DNA from: Candidatus Paceibacter sp.
Lineage (GTDB): Bacteria > Patescibacteriota > Patescibacteriia > S139-126
Length of the DNA stretch: 64,000 nt
Direction of reading: 5' to 3'
NCBI GenBank assembly: GCA_020724865.1
Contig: DYGA01000001.1
Location: 89,438-153,437 of the forward strand
Below are positions 1,132-48,416 of this stretch, piece by piece. A program made the translations under genes and the position numbers. Position 1 is the first letter of the stretch. Every line of letters begins with the position of its first letter. The notes beneath the pieces were generated by a model, which saw only the letters and a program-made list of their open reading frames with translations, was not told the origin of the DNA and made no database searches.

Positions 1132-3342
1132 TTACTCCTTATTTAATTCTTGTTTTTCAGAATAATTTTGCTCTAACTCATTTTCTACATCCATCTCATA
1201 TTCATCACGTGATATCAATACTTCTCTGGGTTTAGCACCATCTCCAGGACCAACCACACCCTCATTTTCCAATAAATCTAACAATCTAGCCGCCCTGGAA
1301 TACCCCACTCTTAATCTTCTTTGTAAATAAGAAGCTGAAGCCTTTTGCGCTTGAATTACTAAATTTCTAGCTTCATCAAGTAAATCATCTTCGTTACTAC
1401 CATAATCCAAACCATTGATACCTTTGTGCTTCTTTTCAGTAATTGTTTGATCATATTCAACTTCAGTGCCATTTTGATTTTTTATATATTCCGTAATCCG
1501 ATTTATTTCTTCATCTGACACTAAGGCTGATTGCAAACGTTTTGGTTTTGATAAATCTGCTGAAATATAAAGCATGTCACCTTTACCCAATAATTTTTCC
1601 GCGCCCGAACTATCCAAAATAGTTCTAGAATCAGTTTGCGAGGCGACGGCAAAAGCAATCCGAGTAGTAATATTTGCTTTAATGAGTCCAGTAATAACAT
1701 TAACTGATGGTCGTTGAGTTGCCAATATCAAATGAATGCCAACCGCTCGGGCCATTTGGGCTAACCTAATAATAGCAGCTTCTACTTCCTGGGCAGCCAC
1801 CGACATTAGATCAGCTAACTCGTCAATAATGATCACAATATATGGCATTTTTTCATTGGGAAAATCTTGATTATATCCAGCAATATTTTTATGTTTAGTC
1901 TGTGATAATTTAACATACCTTTGATCCATTTCAGCAACTGCCCATTTTAAAGCATTAATAGTTTTTTGTACATCTGTTATCACTGGCGTATAAAGATAAG
2001 GCAAATCATTATAGGCAGATAATTCCACTCGCTTGGGGTCTACCAAAATAAAACGCAAATCTTCAGGATTATTTTGATAAAGTAAACTAACAATAATTGT
2101 ATTGATACAAACTGATTTACCGCTGCCAGTGGCTCCAGCTATCAATAAATGAGGCATTTTATCTAAATTAGCCGTCCAAACTTTACCGGCCACATCCTTG
2201 CCGAGGCCAATGGTTAAATTGCTTTGCCTGGTGGTAAATTCTTTAGAAGTAATAACCTCGCGTAAGGATACGGTGGCAATAGATTCATTGGGCACTTCAA
2301 TGCCAACTAATGATTTCCCCGGAATTGGCGCCTCAATTCTTATGGGATGGGCTGCCAAAGCTAAAGCCAAATCATTATGTAAAGCAGTGATACTAGCTAA
2401 TTTCACTCCTTCCACTGGTCGCAGGGTATATTGAGTTACGGTAGGGCCGACACTAACTTCACCCATTTCAACCTCAATACCAAAATTTTGCAATGCTTTT
2501 TTAATTTTTTCTTTATTAGCTTGAATATCACCGCTAGTTGGTTTAGATCTAGTAGGATTAAGTAGATTAATTGGTAACTCAATTTTAACTGATTTTTTTG
2601 GCACAACAATTAACTCGGCTTGTTCGCCTTGATTTAAATTTAATTCTTTTTTGGAAAATTCAATCTCTGTTGCATTATCTGTCAATTCGTCACTAATGGG
2701 AGTTGTTTCATCCTCTTCTTCATCTTTAACATCTCTGGTTAGGCGATCATCACGATGACTAAAATGAAACCACCAGGAAGAAATTTTTTCTCTCCATAAA
2801 ATTAAATTATCAAACTTAACTAAAATAGATTGAAAAGAGGTATTAAATGTTAAAAATAAACCAATTAAAAGTAAAGCTATTAAAACAATAATAGTTGCCC
2901 AAAAACCAAATAATTTAAAAAGTGGCCATGTCACCAACCAACCAAACCAACCGCCTCCAGCGCCATTAATTAAATTTTGAAATGACATTAATTCATAATC
3001 ACGACTAACATGCAATAAACCAAGCAATGCTAAAAAAAATAAAACTAAACCTAAATAATGATTGGGCTTAACACCAAAACGTTCGCTGTCGATAAATAAA
3101 AAACCAACCAATAAAAAAATAAAAGGAAATAAAAAATAAAGCTTACCAAAAAAATATTTTAAAATTTTTAGTAAATAAATACCTACTACACCTGCCGAAT
3201 CAAATAAACTTAAAATCAATAAAGTGGATAGTAATAATACAAAAACAACTCCGATTGATTTTTTTGTTTCCGGAGATAAATGAAAGTTATTAGTCCAAGT
3301 AAATAATTTACTACCACTAAGATTATATTTTCTTTTTTTCAT
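1132..3342 (-). CDS. ftsK: DNA translocase FtsK/SpoIIIE
   Basis: N-terminal polytopic membrane region, linker, and a C-terminal motor domain with Walker A LIAGATGSGKSVCINTIIVSLL and the FtsK gamma-like tail. Confidence 0.9.
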   Translation of the reverse strand: MKKRKYNLSGSKLFTWTNNFHLSPETKKSIGVVFVLLLSTLLILSLFDSAGVVGIYLLKILKYFFGKLYFLFPFIFLLVGFLFIDSERFGVKPNHYLGLVLFFLALLGLLHVSRDYELMSFQNLINGAGGGWFGWLVTWPLFKLFGFWATIIVLIALLLIGLFLTFNTSFQSILVKFDNLILWREKISSWWFHFSHRDDRLTRDVKDEEEDETTPISDELTDNATEIEFSKKELNLNQGEQAELIVVPKKSVKIELPINLLNPTRSKPTSGDIQANKEKIKKALQNFGIEVEMGEVSVGPTVTQYTLRPVEGVKLASITALHNDLALALAAHPIRIEAPIPGKSLVGIEVPNESIATVSLREVITSKEFTTRQSNLTIGLGKDVAGKVWTANLDKMPHLLIAGATGSGKSVCINTIIVSLLYQNNPEDLRFILVDPKRVELSAYNDLPYLYTPVITDVQKTINALKWAVAEMDQRYVKLSQTKHKNIAGYNQDFPNEKMPYIVIIIDELADLMSVAAQEVEAAIIRLAQMARAVGIHLILATQRPSVNVITGLIKANITTRIAFAVASQTDSRTILDSSGAEKLLGKGDMLYISADLSKPKRLQSALVSDEEINRITEYIKNQNGTEVEYDQTITEKKHKGINGLDYGSNEDDLLDEARNLVIQAQKASASYLQRRLRVGYSRAARLLDLLENEGVVGPGDGAKPREVLISRDEYEMDVENELEQNYSEKQELNKE

Positions 3343-3427
3343 AAAAATCCGAATCTATTACTTGAATATTATAACAAATTAAACGATTTTCAAAAAGATA
3401 ACTGAATAAAATATTTGTCCGCCCTGC

Positions 3428-4300
3428 TTAGGTTATTTCAACTTTTTCTAAATTAATATTTTGTCCCATAAAATTCTTGGCAATATCATTTAAATGAGGA
3501 GTGAGATCGGAAACAAAATATCTAATCTGCTTACGTTTTGACAATGAACGGTCAATATCTGGATTACTCAACAAAAAATCTTTTAATTCCTTGGCTACCT
3601 GTAAAGCCGGGTTTATAATTTTGGCATTTTTCATTTTGGCTGAAATTAAATCATAAATTATTGGATAATGTGTACAACCTAAAATTAAAGTATCAATTTG
3701 TTCTTTTTTTAATGGTTGTAAATATTGTTTGATGATTTTCACTGCTTCGGATTTATAAATATAATTTTCCTCAATCAAAGGTACAAGTAAAGGTGCGATT
3801 TGATAAAATATTTTAATTTTTTGATCTGCAGTTTTTTTTATTTGTTGCTGCCGTCGAACAAAAGCGGGAACATTGATATTGCTGTCTGTTATATTTTCTT
3901 TGCCATGTAAATTTAAAACTTTTAATTCCTTAGTAAAAGCGTTGGAACTGATGGTTGCTCTAGTAGCAATGACGCCAATTCTACCTGATTTAGTAACTTG
4001 TAAAGCAGCCCGCAAAGCTGGTTGAATTACCCCAAAAATTGGGACTGGAAAATTATTTCGCAAATTTTCTAAAGCAACAGCGGAAACTGTATTACAAGCA
4101 ACGACAATTATTTTTGCTCCCATTTTAATTAAAAAATTAGCATCTTCTTGAGCATATTGGTTTATTAAAGCCGATGATCTATTGCCATATGGCACCCTAG
4201 CTGTATCACCAAAATATACTAAATCATAAAAAGGTAATAATCTTTTTATCTCTTTTAATACCGTCAAACCGCCTATCCCAGAATCAAAAATACCGATCAT
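3428..4300 (-). CDS. murI: Glutamate racemase
   Basis: IGIFDSGIGGLTV, ACNTVSAV and GCTHYP motifs. Confidence 0.85.
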   Translation of the reverse strand: MIGIFDSGIGGLTVLKEIKRLLPFYDLVYFGDTARVPYGNRSSALINQYAQEDANFLIKMGAKIIVVACNTVSAVALENLRNNFPVPIFGVIQPALRAALQVTKSGRIGVIATRATISSNAFTKELKVLNLHGKENITDSNINVPAFVRRQQQIKKTADQKIKIFYQIAPLLVPLIEENYIYKSEAVKIIKQYLQPLKKEQIDTLILGCTHYPIIYDLISAKMKNAKIINPALQVAKELKDFLLSNPDIDRSLSKRKQIRYFVSDLTPHLNDIAKNFMGQNINLEKVEIT

Positions 4301-4332
4301 AATAATTTAATTTAATAATAAAACAAACAATG

Positions 4333-5685
4333 TTAATTTTTTTCAGCTTCTCCCTGTATAACTCCTAATACTAAGTTAGTTTTATTTTTTAATAACTGTT
4401 CATTATTTGCTTCGACTGTAACTCTTAATAGCGGTTCTGTGTTTGATGGACGGACATTGAACCACCAATCATTATATTCTACAGTAATCCCATCGGTAAA
4501 ATCTTGTTGACCATCTGAAAAATAATTTTTAATAACATCTATTTTTTCTTCGCTGTTGGTTACTGGTAAATTTATTTCAGCATTTTTGGCATACTTGTAA
4601 AAAGGTTTGACAACCGCTGATAAAGGCTGATTATATTCTGATAACAGTTGCATCATTATCAACCAAGAAATAAAACCAGAATCACTATAAAAATTATCTC
4701 GAAATGAATAATGTGCTGATAGTTCACCACCCATTATTCCATCCGCCGTCCGCATATTGTTCGCAATATTGATATAGCCGGCTGGTGATTTAATAGGCCT
4801 ACCGCCCCATTCACTAATTTTTTCCGGCACTATTTTTGAACAAATTACATTATAAACAATGCCCGCTCCCGGTTCTCTAGTTAAAAACATTTTAGCTAGC
4901 AGTAATAAAGTTATGTCAGCTCTAATAAAATTACCTAATTCATCAATAAAAAACAGTCGGTCAGTATCACCATCAAAAATTACTCCAAAATTTGCCTTAG
5001 TGGCAACTGTCTGTTCACTAATTTGAATCTGACTTTCCGGTAAAAGCGGGTTAGACGGATGAACAGGAAAACTGCCATCTAAATTAAAATTTAGAGGAAC
5101 TATTTGTATTGGTAAGTGTTTAGCCAATAAAGGAACAATTTTTCCAGCCATACCGTTTCCGGCATCAACCACCACTTTAAATGGTTTTATTTTATTGATG
5201 TCAACAAAAGATAAAACATGATCAATATATTTATTTAAAATATCAACTTTTTCAATTTGCCCTTTTTTAATATTTTCTAATGGTGGCAAATTTATAACTT
5301 CATCTTTTAATTCTATGCCTCTAACCCAATTCATCCCAGTAAATACCATTTTAAAACCATTATACTCAGCAGGATTGTGCGAAGCTGTTATCATTACCGC
5401 AGCGTCATAACCTAATTTCCCCACGGTAAAATAAGTGGCATCTATTGAAACCAAACCAATATCAACTGCAGTTAATCCCTCATCAGTAATACCACGAATT
5501 AATTCAGTTTTTAAAACCGGACCTGACAATCTCATATCACTACCCACTACTATTTTTTTACAACCATATTTTGTTTTCCCTCGTCTGGCCAAAGCCCGGC
5601 CAATACTATAAGCTGCTTCTTCATTTAATTCAGTGGGGTAAATACCACGAATATCATAAGCTTTGAATATTTTCTCATTTATCAT
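4333..5685 (-). CDS. glmM: Alpha-D-phosphohexomutase family (phosphoglucosamine mutase / phosphomannomutase)
   Basis: Active-site TASHNPAEYNGFK serine loop and a DGDTDR metal-binding loop. GlmM versus ManB specificity cannot be decided from sequence alone. Confidence 0.75.
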   Translation of the reverse strand: MINEKIFKAYDIRGIYPTELNEEAAYSIGRALARRGKTKYGCKKIVVGSDMRLSGPVLKTELIRGITDEGLTAVDIGLVSIDATYFTVGKLGYDAAVMITASHNPAEYNGFKMVFTGMNWVRGIELKDEVINLPPLENIKKGQIEKVDILNKYIDHVLSFVDINKIKPFKVVVDAGNGMAGKIVPLLAKHLPIQIVPLNFNLDGSFPVHPSNPLLPESQIQISEQTVATKANFGVIFDGDTDRLFFIDELGNFIRADITLLLLAKMFLTREPGAGIVYNVICSKIVPEKISEWGGRPIKSPAGYINIANNMRTADGIMGGELSAHYSFRDNFYSDSGFISWLIMMQLLSEYNQPLSAVVKPFYKYAKNAEINLPVTNSEEKIDVIKNYFSDGQQDFTDGITVEYNDWWFNVRPSNTEPLLRVTVEANNEQLLKNKTNLVLGVIQGEAEKN

Positions 5686-10144: not shown

Positions 10145-11209
10145 ATGTCCAGTTTAAATACAAAAAATATGAATTTAGAAAACCTATTTGAAATTGCTGT
10201 AGAAAACAATGCTTCTGATATTCATCTTTTAGTAGGTAAATCGCCTATTTTACGTGTTTCTGGAGACTTAAAAGAACTTAATGATTTACCTATTATCGTC
10301 CCTGAACTTATTCAAAAAATGATTAAAGAAGCAATAAACGAAAAACAGTATGAGACCTTTATAAAAGATCGTGAATTAGATTTTTCTTATCCTTTAAAAA
10401 ATGGCACCCGCATGCGTGTTAATCTATTTTGGGAAAAAGAAAACATGGGCCTAGTCGCTAGAGTTGTGCCCAGTAAAATTCCAGCGATGAAAGAAATTAT
10501 GATGCCTGAAGTTGTTTATCGCTTAACTAGGTTAAATCAAGGATTAGTTTTGGTAACTGGACCCACTGGTTGTGGTAAATCCACTTCTCTGGCAGCTATG
10601 ATTGAGCTGATTAACTCAGAAAGAGGGGTAAATATTGTTACTCTAGAAGATCCAATTGAATTTGTTTATAAAAACAAAAAATCTATTATTAAACAACGTC
10701 AACTTGGTTCTGATATGCTATCTTTCCAATCAGCCTTAAAACACGTTCTACGCCAAGACCCTGATGTTATTTTGGTAGGAGAAATGCGGGATTTAGAAAC
10801 AATAGCTGCAACTATTACTTTGGCCGAAACTGGACACTTAGTTTTTGCTACCTTACATACGCTCAATGCCTCTCAAACTATTGACCGTATTATTGATGTT
10901 TTTCCGCCATACCAACAACCACAAGTAAGATTACAAGTCTCAATGACACTAGCCGGTATTGTTTCACAAAGACTCCTGCCAAAAAAAGATGGCGGCATGG
11001 TGGCTACTCGTGAAATTCTTATTAATACTCCAGCTATTTCAAATTTAATAAGAGAAAATAAAATTCAACAAATTAAAACTATTATCCAAACTTCAGCCGC
11101 GGAAGGCATGATTTCTATGGATCAAGATCTAAAACGATTATACAATGAAAACTATATCGATAAAGAAACTGCCAAACAATACATGATGGATCCCAATAGT
11201 TTAAAATAA
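10145..11209 (+). CDS. pilT: Type IV pilus retraction ATPase PilT
   Basis: GLVLVTGPTGCGKSTSLAAMI Walker A, Asp box, His box and the PilT-specific AISNLIRENKIQQI motif. Its 354-aa length fits PilT rather than PilB. Confidence 0.85.
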   Translation: MSSLNTKNMNLENLFEIAVENNASDIHLLVGKSPILRVSGDLKELNDLPIIVPELIQKMIKEAINEKQYETFIKDRELDFSYPLKNGTRMRVNLFWEKENMGLVARVVPSKIPAMKEIMMPEVVYRLTRLNQGLVLVTGPTGCGKSTSLAAMIELINSERGVNIVTLEDPIEFVYKNKKSIIKQRQLGSDMLSFQSALKHVLRQDPDVILVGEMRDLETIAATITLAETGHLVFATLHTLNASQTIDRIIDVFPPYQQPQVRLQVSMTLAGIVSQRLLPKKDGGMVATREILINTPAISNLIRENKIQQIKTIIQTSAAEGMISMDQDLKRLYNENYIDKETAKQYMMDPNSLK

Positions 11210-11254: not shown

Positions 11255-11321
11255 TGATGCTTTTGTTTTACGAAATCCTAATCTATTTTGAACGAAACTG
11301 ATAACACATGAACGCAGTCAA

Positions 11322-11400
11322 ATCGGTCAGTAAAATTTCTGAAAGTCAAATCTTGGTGCAATTATATGACCAAATCCGAACTCACTTCGAGCGGGACTAA
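11322..11400 (-). repeat. Decayed copy of the tRNA-Lys 3' end (…gttcggatttggtcatataattgCACCA) plus ~45 nt of its 3' trailer
   Basis: In minus sense, cacca-agatttgactttcagaaattttactgaccgatttgactgcg aligns at ~70% with the trailer directly 3' of tRNA-Lys (cacca-gtatcaaactttcaggaattttgccgaccgattcagccgcg). The T-loop-like gttcgga is retained. Confidence 0.55.
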
Positions 11401-11511
11401 CCGCCTCGCTTCGCTCGGCGTACGCTCGGGCGCGGCGGAATTCCCCCCTTGAACCCCCCTTCCGCCGCGCCCTCGCGGGAGGCCAAAAATTTTTTCGCCG
11501 CCAAAAATCAA
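11401..11511. other. GC-rich structured island with a perfect 13-bp stem gggcgcggcggaa/ttccgccgcgccc around a 19-nt C-rich loop, plus smaller GC palindromes
   Basis: Local GC is far above the genome background. The overlapping ORFs (11327..11569, 11449..11697) are Arg/Pro-rich translation artifacts. Confidence 0.5.
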
Positions 11512-11799
11512 CTAGAAAAGAGTATTGATTGCGATAGATCCACCAATCCAAAGCAGGATTGCCAACCACCCAAGGTTATTAGCCTTCTTAGCTTTCTTCG
11601 GCAATCTTTTTTTCCAGCCGTAGTAAAAAATCGCCTGTGCGATGAGGGGAGCAAACAGACACAAAATGAATACATACCAAAGAACATTTCCGCTTAGTGG
11701 TGATTCGTCCACCTGACCTTCGGGCACAGAGGATTTTTCTTTTCTCATCACAAAAAACGAAATGATGCCGGGGATGAGTGTGAAAATTAGTAAATTCAT
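11512..11799 (-). CDS. Small membrane protein (3 predicted TM helices), hypothetical
   Basis: ORF with hydrophobic segments and genome-typical AT-rich codon usage. Confidence 0.5.
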   Translation of the reverse strand: MNLLIFTLIPGIISFFVMRKEKSSVPEGQVDESPLSGNVLWYVFILCLFAPLIAQAIFYYGWKKRLPKKAKKANNLGWLAILLWIGGSIAINTLF

Positions 11800-11812: not shown

Positions 11813-12574
11813 TTATTTTTTAATTTGTAATTCTTCTCTCAGAAAATTAGTCAACGGGTGCGTATACACATTCAGTATATAACTATAAGGATTATCTGTA
11901 AACGGATTTTTTGTGGACAGTAAAGATTGCTGTACTTCTCTGATTGGGTTTGGATTTTCTTTGACCATTCTCTCTAATTCTTCTTGGGAGACAAAAATAG
12001 AGGTGTCATAAACTTGCACCGCTATTTCTCGACCTTTGTCAGTTTTTACAAATTCCACAGAATCCATTTCCGCTATTCGTTGCAATGCTTCCGAGGTAAA
12101 TGTTGATAATTCATCTCCTTGTATATTTAGACCAAATTTCTGCGGATTAGAAAGAATTGCGGCGTGAGAAGTAAAAACGGCTAGAAAAATTATTCCCATC
12201 GCTATAGCAATAGAAGGAAATTGTTTTTGAGGATTAACAAAACCGTAGTAAGAAGCGAGGGTGATTAGTCCAGTAGCAAGAATTAAATATACGAGTTGTA
12301 TTCCGTTCGGAATGGAAAAAAGTAAAATTCCAAGAGCAGCAGTAAGAGCCGCCCAACCAACAAAAATCCAACTTTTTTCACGGACAGTGAATAGTCCGAG
12401 TACAAATAAGCTCGCGAGCGTTATTGTAGTGCTAGAACTTAAAATTTTTTCTGGTACAGAAAACAAAAACAACGCGGGGATGAAAAATATCCCAGCGTAA
12501 ATCATCAATAGCCAACCCATAAATATAGCTGACGATTGGAAAAGCTGTTTATGTTTTTGAATGAAATTTTCCAT
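11813..12574 (-). CDS. Membrane protein (4-5 TM) with a C-terminal soluble domain, hypothetical. The start is reassigned to the internal Met (MENFIQ…); the upstream GC-rich extension is not coding-like.
   Basis: The ORF-track N-terminal 30 aa (ETLAPPAQRGSPSAGSSQRF) come from the GC-rich hairpin region and match neither the composition nor the usage of the rest of the gene. Confidence 0.5.
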   Translation of the reverse strand: MENFIQKHKQLFQSSAIFMGWLLMIYAGIFFIPALFLFSVPEKILSSSTTITLASLFVLGLFTVREKSWIFVGWAALTAALGILLFSIPNGIQLVYLILATGLITLASYYGFVNPQKQFPSIAIAMGIIFLAVFTSHAAILSNPQKFGLNIQGDELSTFTSEALQRIAEMDSVEFVKTDKGREIAVQVYDTSIFVSQEELERMVKENPNPIREVQQSLLSTKNPFTDNPYSYILNVYTHPLTNFLREELQIKK

Positions 12575-12597
12575 AGCAAAATTAAAAGGTTGCCGCC

Positions 12598-12721
12598 AAA
12601 GAAATCTTTGGCTCGAACCTGCGCTTGGCGAGCCGCGCTGTGCGGGGGGAGCCAGTGTTTCCATTCTCTGCCGCGCTTCGCGCGGCTGAATCGGTCGGCA
12701 AAATTCCTGAAAGTTTGATAC
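12598..12721 (-). other. tRNA-Lys 3' trailer module: conserved AACTTTcaGGAATT motif followed by GC-rich hairpins (gccgcgc-gaag-gcgcggc; ggctcg…cgagcc; ccaaag-attt-ctttgg)
   Basis: Lies directly 3' of tRNA-Lys on the minus strand. It is related to the orphan copy at 11322-11361 and more distantly to the 3' flanks of tRNA-Arg and tRNA-Leu(TAG). Confidence 0.5.
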
Positions 12722-12797
12722 TGGTGGGTCGCACAGGACTCGAACCTGTAACCAATTGCTTAAGAGGCAACTGCTCTACCAATTGAGCTAGCGACCC
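12722..12797 (-). tRNA. tRNA-Lys (anticodon CTT), CCA encoded
   Basis: Minus-sense gggtcgc-ta-gctc-aattggta-gagc-a-gttgc-ctCTTaa-gcaat-tggtt-acagg-ttcgagt-cctgt-gcgaccc-a-cca gives a cloverleaf with a 7-nt anticodon loop. Confidence 0.85.
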
Positions 12798-12842: not shown

Positions 12843-13022
12843 TATACTAATAGCAAATAATTAAATAATGGTCAATGCTAAATTATATATTCTCAATTTT
12901 AAATTTAAAAATATATTATATTTTAAAATAAGTTTAAATAATTTATGTCCTCCCTTATAACGATAAGGAGCATCTACTCGGCAAACGCAACTTTTCTGCC
13001 GAACAATAAAATTTCAAGTTCC

Positions 13023-13535
13023 TTATGGTAAATTCCTATGAATTTTAGTTAAAAGAAACGGAGATAACAATGGTTTTAATTTTAATTGCTGTTTCCGCGT
13101 TAAATATTTAAACCCTTTAATATGACCAAAACAATTTTTGGCGCCACAGACACACTTGAAATCAGTACCCCACTTTTTCATATCCCACTCTGTAGTGAGG
13201 TAGTTAAAAGTTATCTCTTCATTTTTCGAAATATTTTTAATGGCAATAAACCATTTTTTTTCAGTATCAAGCTTAGTATTTGGTGAACAACTATGATTAA
13301 TAAAATCTTCTGGAACAAGATATTTTGTATCAATAAATTTATCCTTACTTATTTGCACCGCTTCCGGCGTAGAATTTGTGGCATTAACAAGCTTTCCTTT
13401 TAAAAAAATAATCTTATCACCTTTCCTAAATCTTTTATTGGCAAAAAGCGCTAATCCTTTTTTCCACACATAAACAACTTTAAGAGATTGAGGAATTTTC
13501 AAATTAAAAAGTCTTTTATTTTGCCTGATAAGCAT
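13023..13535 (-). CDS. SET-domain protein (putative lysine methyltransferase) with a post-SET Cys cluster
   Basis: SET signature motifs NHSCSPN and EEITFNY plus the post-SET CVCGAKNC. Confidence 0.75.
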   Translation of the reverse strand: MLIRQNKRLFNLKIPQSLKVVYVWKKGLALFANKRFRKGDKIIFLKGKLVNATNSTPEAVQISKDKFIDTKYLVPEDFINHSCSPNTKLDTEKKWFIAIKNISKNEEITFNYLTTEWDMKKWGTDFKCVCGAKNCFGHIKGFKYLTRKQQLKLKPLLSPFLLTKIHRNLP

Positions 13536-13713
13536 GGTTTAAAAAAAATTAATGACTGAAAAAATAAATTTGTTTACTTAATTTAATGCAAAAATCGGCC
13601 GAATTGCAAGAGAGGATAAATAAAACTTTATAAATTACTTAATGGAAAACTTATCACAAATGAAAATAATGTCGACAAAATTTGTGCCTATATTAATTAA
13701 AGATTGAAGAAAA

Positions 13714-14265
13714 TTAATTTTTCTCTTTTTCTTGGATTTGTTGGTATATTTCTTTTTTTAAATTTTCAAAAATCTGAAAAGATTGAGGAAAGTGTAGACG
13801 AATATACTCTAATACTGAAGGTTGCAATTTATTCATCATAAGGTAAGGGTAAAACTCTTCTTGATTCCTTAAAATAAATATTAAACCTGCTGTTTCGTTT
13901 TCAAAATCTAGTAAAATCGGATTAGCTTTCATAATTGCATCTTTTGATCTTTGATTATATTCATCTTCATTAATTTCTCCCTTTTGCAATAAATTAAATA
14001 AAAAATCGATTTCTTGTGACCAGCGTAATTCTTTTTCCTTAAAATCTTTTAAAATAAAATCACGCGCTTCATTTAAAACTACCCTTTGTTTTGTTGGCAA
14101 ATTATCTATTTCTTTGTGCAGTCGTTCATGTGCTAAAACATCACGAAAACCTTCTTTATGCAATTCATTCTCACTCAATACAATGTTGCCATTTTCAAAA
14201 TATGACATAAAAACTCGTGCTTCTTCTTCGGAATATCCTAACTGCTCCATTTTCTTTAAAAACAT
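13714..14265 (-). CDS. Hypothetical protein with an HExxH motif (AHERLH), possible small metallopeptidase-like fold
   Basis: ORF with typical composition and a single HExxH. No further recognisable family. Confidence 0.35.
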   Translation of the reverse strand: MFLKKMEQLGYSEEEARVFMSYFENGNIVLSENELHKEGFRDVLAHERLHKEIDNLPTKQRVVLNEARDFILKDFKEKELRWSQEIDFLFNLLQKGEINEDEYNQRSKDAIMKANPILLDFENETAGLIFILRNQEEFYPYLMMNKLQPSVLEYIRLHFPQSFQIFENLKKEIYQQIQEKEKN

Positions 14266-14435
14266 TATCTGTTTTTCCTGACTATTTAGATAGTTTTTTT
14301 AAAATAGCCTCCTGCTGGTGTTCCTATCATACCTGGATCAACTACTTCACCAAAGACAACCATTACTTTATTAGGCACCACGTACTCACCATTTTTAATA
14401 AGTTGGCAATTTTTTTCATACAAATTTTTCACTTC

Positions 14436-14804
14436 CTAAAAATATTCCATATTGATTGTTTTCTTCTCCTCAACTTCAGATTTGGTTTGAGCAAAAGCAG
14501 ATTCAGCCCTGATTAATGAAAAAATAACAACTAATGTCTTTAAGGCATTTCTCAATAGTGAATTATTTCGTATCTTTTCCAAAAATGATGGGGATTCAAT
14601 TACTTTTTCTACTTTTTTATCAATAATCTGTTCATTATCAGATGGCAAAATATCAAATTCATTTTTAAAGACTTGTTGTGCAGTAAAAATTTTTTCATTC
14701 TGTTCTAGCTCAAATTTTTGATCTCCAAACTTTTCAACTTCAATAGTTTTCGATTTTTCTTCATTTTTATTTGTAAAATTATTTTCAATATAATTTTCTT
14801 TCAT
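14436..14804 (-). CDS. Hypothetical acidic protein
   Basis: ORF only. A 170-nt gap to the next gene contains a further ~44-codon ORF, so frameshift or pseudogenisation is possible. Confidence 0.3.
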   Translation of the reverse strand: MKENYIENNFTNKNEEKSKTIEVEKFGDQKFELEQNEKIFTAQQVFKNEFDILPSDNEQIIDKKVEKVIESPSFLEKIRNNSLLRNALKTLVVIFSLIRAESAFAQTKSEVEEKKTINMEYF

Positions 14805-14984
14805 AAAATAATTTTATTAAACTCTAATAATTTTTCTTGATTAAATTGCATTAAATTAAGTAAGTTAAATTAAATTTTTTCCGTAACAACTTGATAGTAT
14901 TAGTAATAAATTTTCAAGTATCATAGAGCCTTTAATATTGTTTTATAAAATTTGCGTAAACTTTTTTTAATTTGTTAACTAGCG

Positions 14985-15027
14985 CGTGGACAGCGAGCGG
15001 AGCAATTAATTCCGACAAAGTTAGTTT
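14985..15027 (-). other. Conserved tRNA 3'-flank module (aaactaactttgtcggaattaattgctccgctcgctgtccacgcgc)
   Basis: ~90% identical over ~35 nt to the sequence directly 3' of tRNA-Leu(TAG) at 32757-32796. Confidence 0.5.
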
Positions 15028-15102
15028 TGGTGCACCCGGAGGGATTCGAACCCCCAACAACAGGTCCGAAGCCTGTCATGATATCCATTTCACCACGGGT
15101 GC
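15028..15102 (-). tRNA. tRNA-Arg (anticodon TCG), CCA encoded
   Basis: Minus-sense gcacccg-tg-gtga-aatggata-tcat-g-acagg-ctTCGga-cctgt-tgttg-ggggg-ttcgaat-ccctc-cgggtgc-a-cca. Confidence 0.8.
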
Positions 15103-26209: not shown

Positions 26210-26315
26210 GTTGTATATAGAATTAAGAATTTAAAATTAACTATAAATAGTTTTGGTTGATAAATTTACGAACGACTAATTAACATATTAAAAAGTTTAT
26301 TTAATTTTAAACTTG

Positions 26316-26891: not shown

Positions 26892-27107
26892 AAGTTGATT
26901 AGTTACCTAGCTTGACTACTCACCACTATAACAACAAGCGTTAAGTTATAATTTTATTCACAATAATTTTTTTAAAAAAAACCGCCAAAGTTTAATACAT
27001 AAAAAAATATTTTTATATTTTTTATTTAATAAAAAGAATTTAACAATTCTTTTTATTTTTTTATTTGTAAAGTTTTCCACACTTGCTTTTACTTGACTAA
27101 CAAAAAA

Positions 27108-29079: not shown

Positions 29080-32234
<3,155 letters not shown>

Positions 32235-32583: not shown

Positions 32584-32744
32584 TAATATTCAATAAAAAA
32601 ATACAAAAATAAATAACAAACTGACAAAAAAATATATTATTTTTTAACAATTGGTGTATTTAACAACCACGCTCGAACGCATTTTAGTAAAAATTACTGA
32701 ACTTGAACAGCTACCCCTTTTTCTGCCCGCCCCTCCCGAGCGGA

Positions 32745-32796
32745 TTGGTTTTTGGCGCGTAGCGAATGGAGCAATTAATTTCGACAAAGTTAGTTT
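32745..32796 (-). other. Conserved tRNA 3'-flank module (copy at tRNA-Leu-TAG) followed by a GC-rich segment
   Basis: aaactaactttgtcgaaattaattgctccattcgctacgcgcc matches the tRNA-Arg flank. Confidence 0.5.
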
Positions 32797-32883
32797 TGGT
32801 GCCGGAGAGAGGACTTGAACCTCCACGGGGTTACCCCCACCAGCTCCTAAGGCTGGCGTGTATGCCAATTTCACCACTCCGGC
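32797..32883 (-). tRNA. tRNA-Leu (anticodon TAG), long variable arm
   Basis: Minus-sense gccggag-tg-gtga-…-ccagc-ctTAGga-gctgg-tgggggtaaccccgtg-gaggttcaagtcctc-tctccggc-a-cca. Confidence 0.85.
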
Positions 32884-46885: not shown

Positions 46886-48370
<1,485 letters not shown>

Positions 48371-48416
48371 AGTGAGAATTGATTGATCTCAAAATATGAG
48401 ATCTGACTCTCAAAAG

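Follow-up and report, generated by a model that had tools for sequence, protein, structure and literature searches.

Candidate insertion modules lodged directly behind the 3'-terminal CACCA of transfer RNA genes in a Patescibacteria genome

Here we analyse a 64-kilobase (kb) stretch of Candidatus Paceibacter sp. DNA (contig DYGA01000001.1; hereafter the window, to which motif, module and open reading frame (ORF) counts refer unless another locus is named), in which a related sequence stands directly behind the CCA end of three transfer RNA (tRNA) genes, tRNA-Lys(CTT), tRNA-Arg(TCG) and tRNA-Leu(TAG). We propose, at a probability of about one in two, that small and for the most part non-autonomous insertion modules have lodged exactly after the 3'-terminal CACCA of the tRNA genes and that the trailers are their ends on the tRNA side. 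The proposal builds on the observed boundaries of the inserts, on the modules that compose them, on the recurrence of these modules in other genomes, and on their association with tRNA genes. The source names of the relatives of the window proteins place the genome among the Patescibacteria (Candidate Phyla Radiation, CPR), a group with tiny genomes for which few mobile elements have been described. Should the modules prove mobile, new genes would enter such genomes mainly at tRNA 3' ends, and the design (a mimic of the target at one end, several tRNA species used, and no enzyme encoded in cis) would be unusual. No description of such trailers was found in the literature.

The window is rich in adenine and thymine (AT), with a guanine-plus-cytosine (GC) content of ~32%, and carries eight tRNA genes, five on the plus strand and three on the minus strand. 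The latter, all intact, are tRNA-Lys(CTT) at 12722-12797, which ends in CACCA, tRNA-Arg(TCG) at 15028-15102 and tRNA-Leu(TAG) at 32797-32883, and they are the targets of what we call the Lys insert, the Arg insert and the Leu mini-insert, respectively. Read directly, CCA is followed by GTATCAAACTTTCAGGAATTTTGCCGACC... at Lys, by AAACTAACTTTGTCGGAATTAATTGCTCCGCTCGC... at Arg and by AAACTAACTTTGTCGAAATTAATTGCTCCATTCGC... at Leu. The 24-mer AACTTTGTCGRAATTAATTGCTCC is confined to the Arg and Leu trailers of the window even when up to three mismatches are allowed (0 expected), and BLAST aligns these two trailers at 92% identity over 36 nucleotides (nt) and at 82% over 68 nt with gaps. The Lys trailer has in common with them just AACTTT-N2-GGAATT, at a nearly equal offset. 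Unanchored, this pattern is weak, with a match in 13 of 100 shuffles. Anchored to the tRNA end as CCA-N4-8-ACTTT-N2-4-GRAAT, it occurs four times against 0.16 expected, a count reached in 0 of 100 Markov simulations, although the pattern was composed after viewing the three trailers and its statistic is thus partly post hoc. Three of the anchored copies follow tRNA-Lys, tRNA-Arg and tRNA-Leu, and the fourth, at 11335-11356, stands behind no tRNA.

These results bear out the original prediction that a related post-CCA module is carried by the three minus-strand tRNAs and is lacking from the five plus-strand tRNAs, since the motif was absent when each of the five plus-strand trailers was checked. 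Duplication of the tRNA genes does not account for the similarity, as tRNA-Arg and tRNA-Leu are unrelated genes and identity begins at GCACCA, and the anchored motif is not common away from tRNA-like ends. A further claim, that each module gives way to a GC-richer segment, stands for two of the three trailers: outside rRNA (ribosomal RNA) and tRNA genes, the only islands with a 50-nt GC content of at least 0.66 are 12586-12734, which is the Lys trailer and overlaps 13 nt of tRNA-Lys, 32694-32785, which is the Leu trailer, and 11367-11517, while the Arg trailer is GC-rich only mildly. The GC-rich arms reach 70-80% GC, and the loci fetched range from ~33% to 53% GC.

Syntenic loci were retrieved through the neighbouring YmdB-type protein, which is 86% identical in locus L006, 81% in L008 and 66% in L010. 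In all three the order HU, tRNA-Arg(TCG), tRNA-Lys(CTT), convergent T2SSE and UvrD is retained, with an Arg-to-Lys distance of ~300-325 nt in L006 and L008. The 3' half of the window tRNA-Lys is identical to its orthologues in these two loci, where a terminator hairpin follows the gene immediately; the arrangement in L010 is similar. The motif is missing at the orthologous tRNA-Arg and tRNA-Lys in three of three relatives, which have an AT-rich AGAATTAAGAAT-type Arg trailer in common. When aligned, their likeness to the window ends at CCA for tRNA-Lys and at CCA plus AAA for tRNA-Arg, and the extra DNA that the window carries directly after CCA amounts to ~2.0 kb at Arg, 1.37 kb at Lys and 145 nt at Leu. 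Because three relatives are without this extra DNA, parsimony makes the window state the derived, inserted one at Arg and Lys. By this comparison the motif is no conserved feature of tRNA genes; it forms the border of the inserted DNA on the tRNA side. The region 3' of tRNA-Lys is different in every relative examined.

The Lys insert, all of whose features lie on the minus strand, begins with a left-end block (12650-12721) that contains the motif at 12702-12715 and a hairpin, GCCGCGC-GAA-GCGCGGC, at 12670-12686. The remainder of the GC-rich left arm (12575-12649), which falls within the island at 12586-12734, reaches to the start codon of cargo gene 1 (11813-12574), encoding a membrane protein of 253 amino acids (aa) and of unknown function without a Pfam or PHROG match. 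Cargo gene 2 (11512-11799) encodes a 95-aa membrane protein and is paired with gene 1 in all relatives fetched. A mechanically called 283-aa ORF (11813-12664) begins inside the GC-rich trailer; the homologues, of 250-253 aa, begin at MENF, corresponding to 12574, and the Lys trailer is therefore non-coding. Behind the cargo lies a GC-rich block 'a' (11422-11504), which contains a long hairpin (GGGCGCGGCGGAA...TTCCGCCGCGCCC; inverted repeat I2), and then a right-end module (11354-11388; nhmmer E=5e-7), which imitates the 3' end of a tRNA, reads GAAGTGAGTTCGGATTTGGTCATATAATTGCACCA, ends in CACCA and is referred to below as a pseudo-end. Directly after its CACCA comes a second, truncated left-end copy, AGATTTGACTTTCAGAAATTTTACTGACCGATT (11321-11353), which belongs to a 38-nt direct repeat (79%) with 12689-12726, and the head-to-tail junction of CACCA with AGATTTGACTTTCAG is thereby located at window position 11353.

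Searched with nhmmer, the 35-nt pseudo-end profile has exactly two copies in the 64 kb, both ending in CACCA and both oriented like the upstream tRNA; tRNA-Lys stands 1,334 nt before the one and tRNA-Leu 112 nt before the other. In this manner CACCA brackets the Lys insert as well as the Leu insert, and neither has inverted ends. The pseudo-end resembles the T-loop-to-CCA part of a tRNA (GTTCGAG ... CACCA) but is 4-5 nt too long, and no acceptor partner was seen when the DNA upstream was inspected. The module accordingly has the look of a mimic at the DNA level rather than of a tRNA fragment. By this architecture, the Leu trailer is a 145-nt miniature insert on the minus strand, composed of an Arg/Leu-type left-end module (32742-32796), a GC-rich middle (32686-32741) and a right-end pseudo-tRNA-3'-end module, AAAATGCGTTCGAGCGTGGTTGTTAAATACACCA (32652-32685; nhmmer E=9e-8), which is 86-88% identical to two copies in L016, a locus of another genome. 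Beyond the Leu pseudo-end the DNA is AT-rich and includes a consensus promoter for the 23S rRNA.

The Arg insert opens with an Arg/Leu-type left-end module (AAACTAACTTTGTCGGAATTAATTGCTCC...CGCGC) at 14973-15027 on the minus strand, and its junction, CACCA followed by AAACCTAACTT, is found again in L016 at 5483. Its body (12983-14972, minus strand) holds ORFs of 122 aa, 183 aa and 170 aa (the last with a SET domain) and is missing from the Arg-to-Lys interval of L006 and L008. The 183-aa protein was rejected as a marker for the cargo of this insert, being an ORFan. We tentatively place the right boundary at an inverted AAACGCAACTTT (12983-12994), one of three matches to this pattern in the window. 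The targets' own 3'-terminal 16-17 nt (tRNA-Arg, tRNA-Lys and tRNA-Leu) have no second copy in the window, which speaks against a classical attR; what the distal ends of the Lys and Leu inserts offer is CACCA with a generic pseudo-end and, at Lys, the 38-nt repeat (79%).

Homologues of the 253-aa protein were retrieved from seven independent contexts, with 55-83% identity for the pair of 253-aa and 95-aa proteins. They are always paired with a ~95-aa gene and usually accompanied by an upstream gene of the XRE-type helix-turn-helix (HTH) family. In five of the seven contexts the cassette lies no more than ~350 nt from a tRNA 3' end, the tRNA being different each time (Lys in the window, Val-CAC in L016, Ala-GGC in L018, Gln-CTG in L020 and Ser-GCT in L023) and the neighbourhoods unrelated; by a rough estimate that assumes about one tRNA per 20 kb, chance would place a tRNA beside the cassette in a few percent of contexts. 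The resemblance extends to the ends of the inserts. In L016 the CCA of tRNA-Val(CAC) is followed by AGATTTTACTTTTGTCTTTTTGGCCGACAGATTC..., a trailer homologous to that of the window tRNA-Lys; the Lys left-end block is 78% identical over 54 nt to L016 7295-7348, and one pair of the hairpin at 12670-12686 is altered on both sides between the two loci and is still paired. The same locus has two 35-nt pseudo-ends, which continue as CACCA followed by AAACCTAACTT (the Arg/Leu type, at 5483) and as CACCA followed by AGACAAAACTTT (the Lys type, at 2222), and the head-to-tail junctions match the tRNA junctions of Lys, of the L016 tRNA-Val and of Arg/Leu. Over 83 nt, block 'a' matches L016 5544-5625 (inverted) at 95% identity, and it matches L016 7087-7176 (direct) at 72%, yet the cargo protein is just 77% identical between the window and L016. 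The left end follows CCGCCA in L023 and CACCA in all other cases. An earlier suggestion that the trailers constitute a tRNA-linked repeat family is accordingly upheld insofar as the modules recur near tRNAs in other genomes, with the reservation that the Lys sub-type differs from the Arg/Leu sub-type.

Several of the relatives have, in addition, long inverted repeats of roughly 200-300 nt around the cassette: 206 nt (97%) in L020, where one arm touches the CCA of tRNA-Gln, and, judged by eye, ~190 nt in L023 and ~270 nt in L028. None of these cassette-flanking repeats showed a target duplication. In L016 a different set of genes behind tRNA-Tyr lies between the arms of a 314-nt inverted repeat (96%).

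Taken together, the loci display three junction types, namely tRNA-CACCA-left end, pseudo-end-CACCA-host DNA and pseudo-end-CACCA-left end. Beyond these junctions, what follows on the chemistry of recombination, on the enzyme and on the present mobility of any copy is a matter of inference. A module would comprise a left-end sequence and optional cargo, and would leave the tRNA intact upon insertion. The left ends are of two sub-types, (A/G)-(G/T)-A-Y-W-W-R-ACTTT... (Lys) and AAAC(C)TAACTT... (Arg/Leu), and the Lys and Leu modules close with the 35-nt imitation of a T-loop-to-acceptor-to-CCA end that finishes in CACCA. An excised or donor form would carry the junction pseudo-tRNA end-CACCA-left end, which would be attP-like, and an enzyme provided in trans would recombine it, at or beside CACCA, with the attB-like end of a real tRNA. 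Such an exchange would produce tRNA-CACCA-left end at one border of the insert and pseudo-end-CACCA-host trailer at the opposite border. As the target would be regenerated at the right end, modules could stack head to tail, and tandem accretion of this kind is seen in the head-to-tail junctions at window 11353 and L016 5483. The three junction types fit site-specific recombination near CACCA, since an attP-like site recombining with a tRNA end, followed by repeated integration, would yield all of them. A more far-reaching version, which we regard as speculative and rather doubtful, is that these are representatives of an undescribed class of recombinase-less Patescibacteria cassettes that recognise the generic tRNA 3' end (T-loop ... 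CACCA) and whose right end mimics the target, so that each insertion recreates the landing site and islands grow head to tail, the GC-rich arms serving as recognition or guide elements for an enzyme encoded elsewhere, possibly an RNA-guided one.

A number of observations weigh against insertion modules. Neither the ORFs of the inserts nor 20 further ORFs of the window encode an integrase, transposase or other recombinase by Pfam and PHROG searches (ORFs at 57.9-64 kb were unscanned), and none was found in the related inserts or in the unannotated ORFs beside tRNAs in the relatives. The Arg insert is without a pseudo-end module. The identity between pseudo-ends and real tRNA ends is short, consisting of CACCA and a GTTCGA-like word, whereas classical att sites copy 20-50 nt of a specific target. 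No pair of empty and occupied sites with identical flanks was obtained, nor was a circular junction. In L016 and L023 the pseudo-end occurs also in inverted orientation, ~95 nt from the tRNA and at the tip of long inverted repeats, which counts against the proposal because simple integration in one orientation does not predict it; the inverted pseudo-ends and long inverted repeats of the relatives fit no simple model. The 24-mer, finally, was absent from the other genomes and metagenome contigs scanned with AACTTTNNNGRAATTAATTGCTCC, a weak negative given that the collection missed L002, a locus that bears the motif. The AACTTTNNNGRAATTAATTGCTCC search had six matches, each a chance occurrence within coding sequence, and several lay in genes resembling those of aminoacyl-tRNA synthetases. 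A phage or plasmid origin was rejected, as three patterns had no match in IMG/VR and none was found in phage or plasmid records. The original prediction had offered attachment (att) sites of integrative elements as one candidate, and of this the structural part survives, in that the motif edges inserted DNA, a second module marks the far edge and both recur; the inserts depart from that candidate in that no integrase was found among the ORFs scanned and no copy of the target tRNA's own 3'-terminal 16-17 nt was found in the window.

Recombinase genes were seen only beside the L028 cassette (HTH, 250-aa and 98-aa genes), where an IS110-family transposase and a resolvase fragment occupy L028 428-1859. 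This neighbour is the single link to IS110 elements with a bridge RNA, in which a DEDD recombinase is combined with a structured non-coding RNA that pairs with both target and donor. In L023 a free-standing LAGLIDADG endonuclease gene (3317-4318), the sole nucleic-acid enzyme found among unannotated ORFs beside tRNAs in the relatives, ends 8 nt before tRNA-Ser.

Two alternatives retain the extra DNA behind the tRNAs and differ in what put it there. The insertions may have arisen by single-strand transposition of non-autonomous, palindrome-associated elements of the HUH type (IS200/IS605-like), with the same boundaries and with insertion 3' of CACCA; as the right end itself terminates in CACCA, neither terminal inverted repeats nor a true target duplication would then be expected. 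We consider this unlikely, although it would agree with inserts that begin exactly 3' of CACCA and, at Lys and Leu, end in CACCA (a recombination core fits equally), with GC-rich hairpins near the ends, and with head-to-tail arrays. Strand use points in the same direction: occupation is confined to the three tRNAs of the minus strand and spares all five of the plus strand, which has one chance in 56 if three of eight were occupied at random, and because GC skew is negative on the plus strand over most of the window, the occupied CACCA sites are on the strand with leading-strand sequence, that is, the lagging-strand template. IS608 and ISDra2 reportedly show a bias for the lagging-strand template. 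However, no HUH transposase (TnpA) or TnpB gene was found by Pfam in any locus fetched; dozens of CACCA sites are to be expected in 64 kb, yet those in use are limited to tRNA-like ends; distances from hairpin to end are inconsistent; occupied tRNAs in L016 are on both strands; and a T-loop-like right end is foreign to the IS200/IS605 family. Alternatively, no dedicated mobile element would be required if tRNA 3' flanks are hot spots of recombination and repair, for example after cuts by free-standing homing endonucleases, such that flanks and neighbouring genes are copied by gene conversion from the T-loop-to-CCA stretch. This explanation, too, seems improbable to us. The variation of the DNA 3' of tRNA-Lys among the relatives, the LAGLIDADG gene 8 nt upstream of tRNA-Ser in L023, partial tRNA duplications in L008, L006 and L010, and the failure to find a recombinase would all be consistent with it, but it leaves unexplained a conserved right-end module that is not tRNA in different genomes, the exact CACCA boundaries, and the 95% conservation of block 'a' despite diverged cargo proteins.

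The remaining alternatives concern the trailers themselves. A functional RNA, either a shared trailer that directs termination or the processing of tRNA 3' ends, or a released small RNA, for instance a sponge of the 3' external transcribed spacer (3'ETS) type, is suggested by the position directly after CCA on three tRNAs and by the paired change in the Lys-block hairpin between the window and L016; the trailers are probably also co-transcribed with their tRNA, because no promoter-like site was found within them. We nevertheless hold this to be most improbable, and the earlier idea of a processing or termination signal is not sustained. The motif is absent at the orthologous tRNAs of close relatives and at five of the eight tRNAs in the window, its fourth copy sits behind a pseudo-end that is no tRNA, no terminator-like site was found in the window trailers, and their folding energies do not surpass those of shuffled sequences (z = -1.8, 0.0 and +1.6). 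Rfam returned only tRNA, rRNA and RNase P: the Lys locus and the related loci were scanned at a permissive E-value without a trailer match, and the scan of the whole window at gathering threshold, the one that took in the Arg and Leu trailers, gave none either. A structured RNA was rejected on the basis of the folds and of the Rfam result at the Lys locus, negative even under permissive conditions. It is, in our estimation, likewise very unlikely that only the likeness of Arg and Leu is real and that the Lys match to AACTTT-N2-GGAATT is a product of chance in an AT-rich genome. The frequency of the unanchored 12-base pattern in shuffles and the poor MAFFT alignment of Lys with Arg and Leu past the motif would accord with such a coincidence, but the excess of the anchored pattern (4 against 0.16 expected), the shared 35-nt module in which the Lys and Leu inserts finish, and the presence of both junction sub-types in L016 argue otherwise.

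If the trailers are ends of insertion modules, the closest paradigm appears, by analogy, to be that of tRNA-anchored genomic islands built by integrative elements. In Prochlorococcus, tycheposons (bioRxiv 10.1101/2020.12.28.424599) have a tyrosine recombinase gene of their own and lie between ~40-nt partial copies of the specific target tRNA. Like them, the inserts described here sit at tRNA 3' ends and leave the tRNA functional, use several tRNAs and carry accessory cargo, and both share serial integration that displaces older copies, degraded remnants, strain-level variability and streamlined genomes (10.1101/2020.12.28.424599). Unlike tycheposons, the inserts here are without a recombinase that could be found, their distal repeat is a generic tRNA-end mimic with just CACCA and a T-loop-like word in common with the target, and their arms are GC-rich and modular. 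They also resemble decayed, cis-mobilizable integrative elements (CIMEs) and integrative mobilizable elements in being short, in having ends like recombination sites but no recombination genes of their own, in their tandem arrangement at a tRNA-type site, and in that they might be mobilised in trans. CIMEs are defined by the attL and attR of a known parent element, and neither parent element nor integrase is known for the window inserts. With IS200/IS605 elements and their palindrome-associated derivatives they would share insertion 3' of a fixed short sequence, the lack of terminal inverted repeats and target duplication, subterminal hairpins and strand bias; they differ from these in that no HUH transposase or TnpB was found, in targeting tRNA-like ends only, and in the long inverted repeats around the cargo in relatives. 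As with enterobacterial small RNAs derived from the 3'ETS, the sequence lies directly 3' of a tRNA and is probably co-transcribed. Functional trailers of that type are conserved at orthologous loci, whereas the window motif is not. Unlike transposons or miniature inverted-repeat transposable elements (MITEs) with terminal inverted repeats, the Lys and Leu inserts are without inverted ends. The group I introns in Patescibacteria tRNAs (PMC13011429) are located in the anticodon loop at position 35/36 and are unrelated to the trailers.

The tRNA-Lys site is a hot spot and bears signs of ongoing variability. Locus L001 is from the same species as the window (the SET protein is identical), and there, at 10739-10969, a divergent copy, which lacks CCA and has two mismatches in its stem, takes the place of the T arm and 3' end of tRNA-Lys, and behind it lies foreign DNA with a tRNA-His(GTG). 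This is a classical integration inside the tRNA, in its T arm, by an element different from that of the window. A Joint Genome Institute (JGI) contig (L002) stops within the T arm of tRNA-Lys, and the 346-kb JGI contig Ga0246236_1000010 would, if collinear with the window, end at ~12646, inside the Lys trailer. Two independent assembly breaks at this locus suggest repeats or population heterogeneity. At the Leu insert the only other contig, a short one, is identical, and no strain polymorphism was seen. In practice, trailers of this kind interrupt assemblies and invite misreading as regulatory signals of tRNA genes or as coding sequence, as in the spurious 283-aa ORF here.

Further sequences of related character were observed near tRNAs. 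In L016 (2129-2221, at tRNA-Tyr) and L023 (4419-4506, at tRNA-Ser) a near-palindromic segment of ~90 nt lies between the tRNA and the inverted pseudo-end, and both of its ends, read inward from each CCA, resemble the left-end motif. In L008 (11271-11466) and L006 (11273-11459) a GC-rich element of ~190 nt stands directly after tRNA-Arg(TCG), bounded by a 38-nt direct repeat that comprises the last 16 nt of tRNA-Arg and 22 nt of trailer, and ends in a single-stranded copy of the tRNA acceptor 3' strand with its CCA. Folded as a consensus, the two copies form 49 pairs (3 compensatory, 5 one-sided and 0 broken changes). The element has no Rfam match and could represent either a structured RNA or an integrated element in miniature. 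In L010 a 22-nt copy of the tRNA-Arg 5' end, ~100 nt upstream of the gene, is followed by GC-rich CCTGYCTGCCGRYAGGCAGG hairpins (11835-11900), and a hairpin resembling the CCTGYCTGCCGRYAGGCAGG form precedes tRNA-Lys (12105-12135).

On the plus strand of the window, the trailer of tRNA-Ala(TGC) at 26892-26904 begins with AAGTTGATTAGTT, 13 nt identical to a tRNA-Ala(GGC) trailer elsewhere (L016 7643-7655). The tRNA-Ala(GGC) trailer of the other genome continues as ...TTGCTCCGCC, which resembles TTGCTCCGC of the Arg module; a plus-strand tRNA may thus, from this likeness, also carry a remnant of the family. The rRNA genes comprise a 23S-5S operon and a 16S gene (46887-48371) unlinked from it. The 23S match (29084-32224) measures 3,141 nt against a model of 2,925 positions, and the gene probably contains ~200 nt of insertion. 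Both the window and L008 have, behind tRNA-Leu(GAG), a periodic AT-rich trailer of the AGAATTAAGAAT / AGTATTAAGTAT type that in three relatives stands behind tRNA-Arg (sites of both kinds: window 26210-26250; L008 279-312 and 11271-11310; L006 11272-11300; L010 12020-12060); it may be the ancestral trailer of the lineage.

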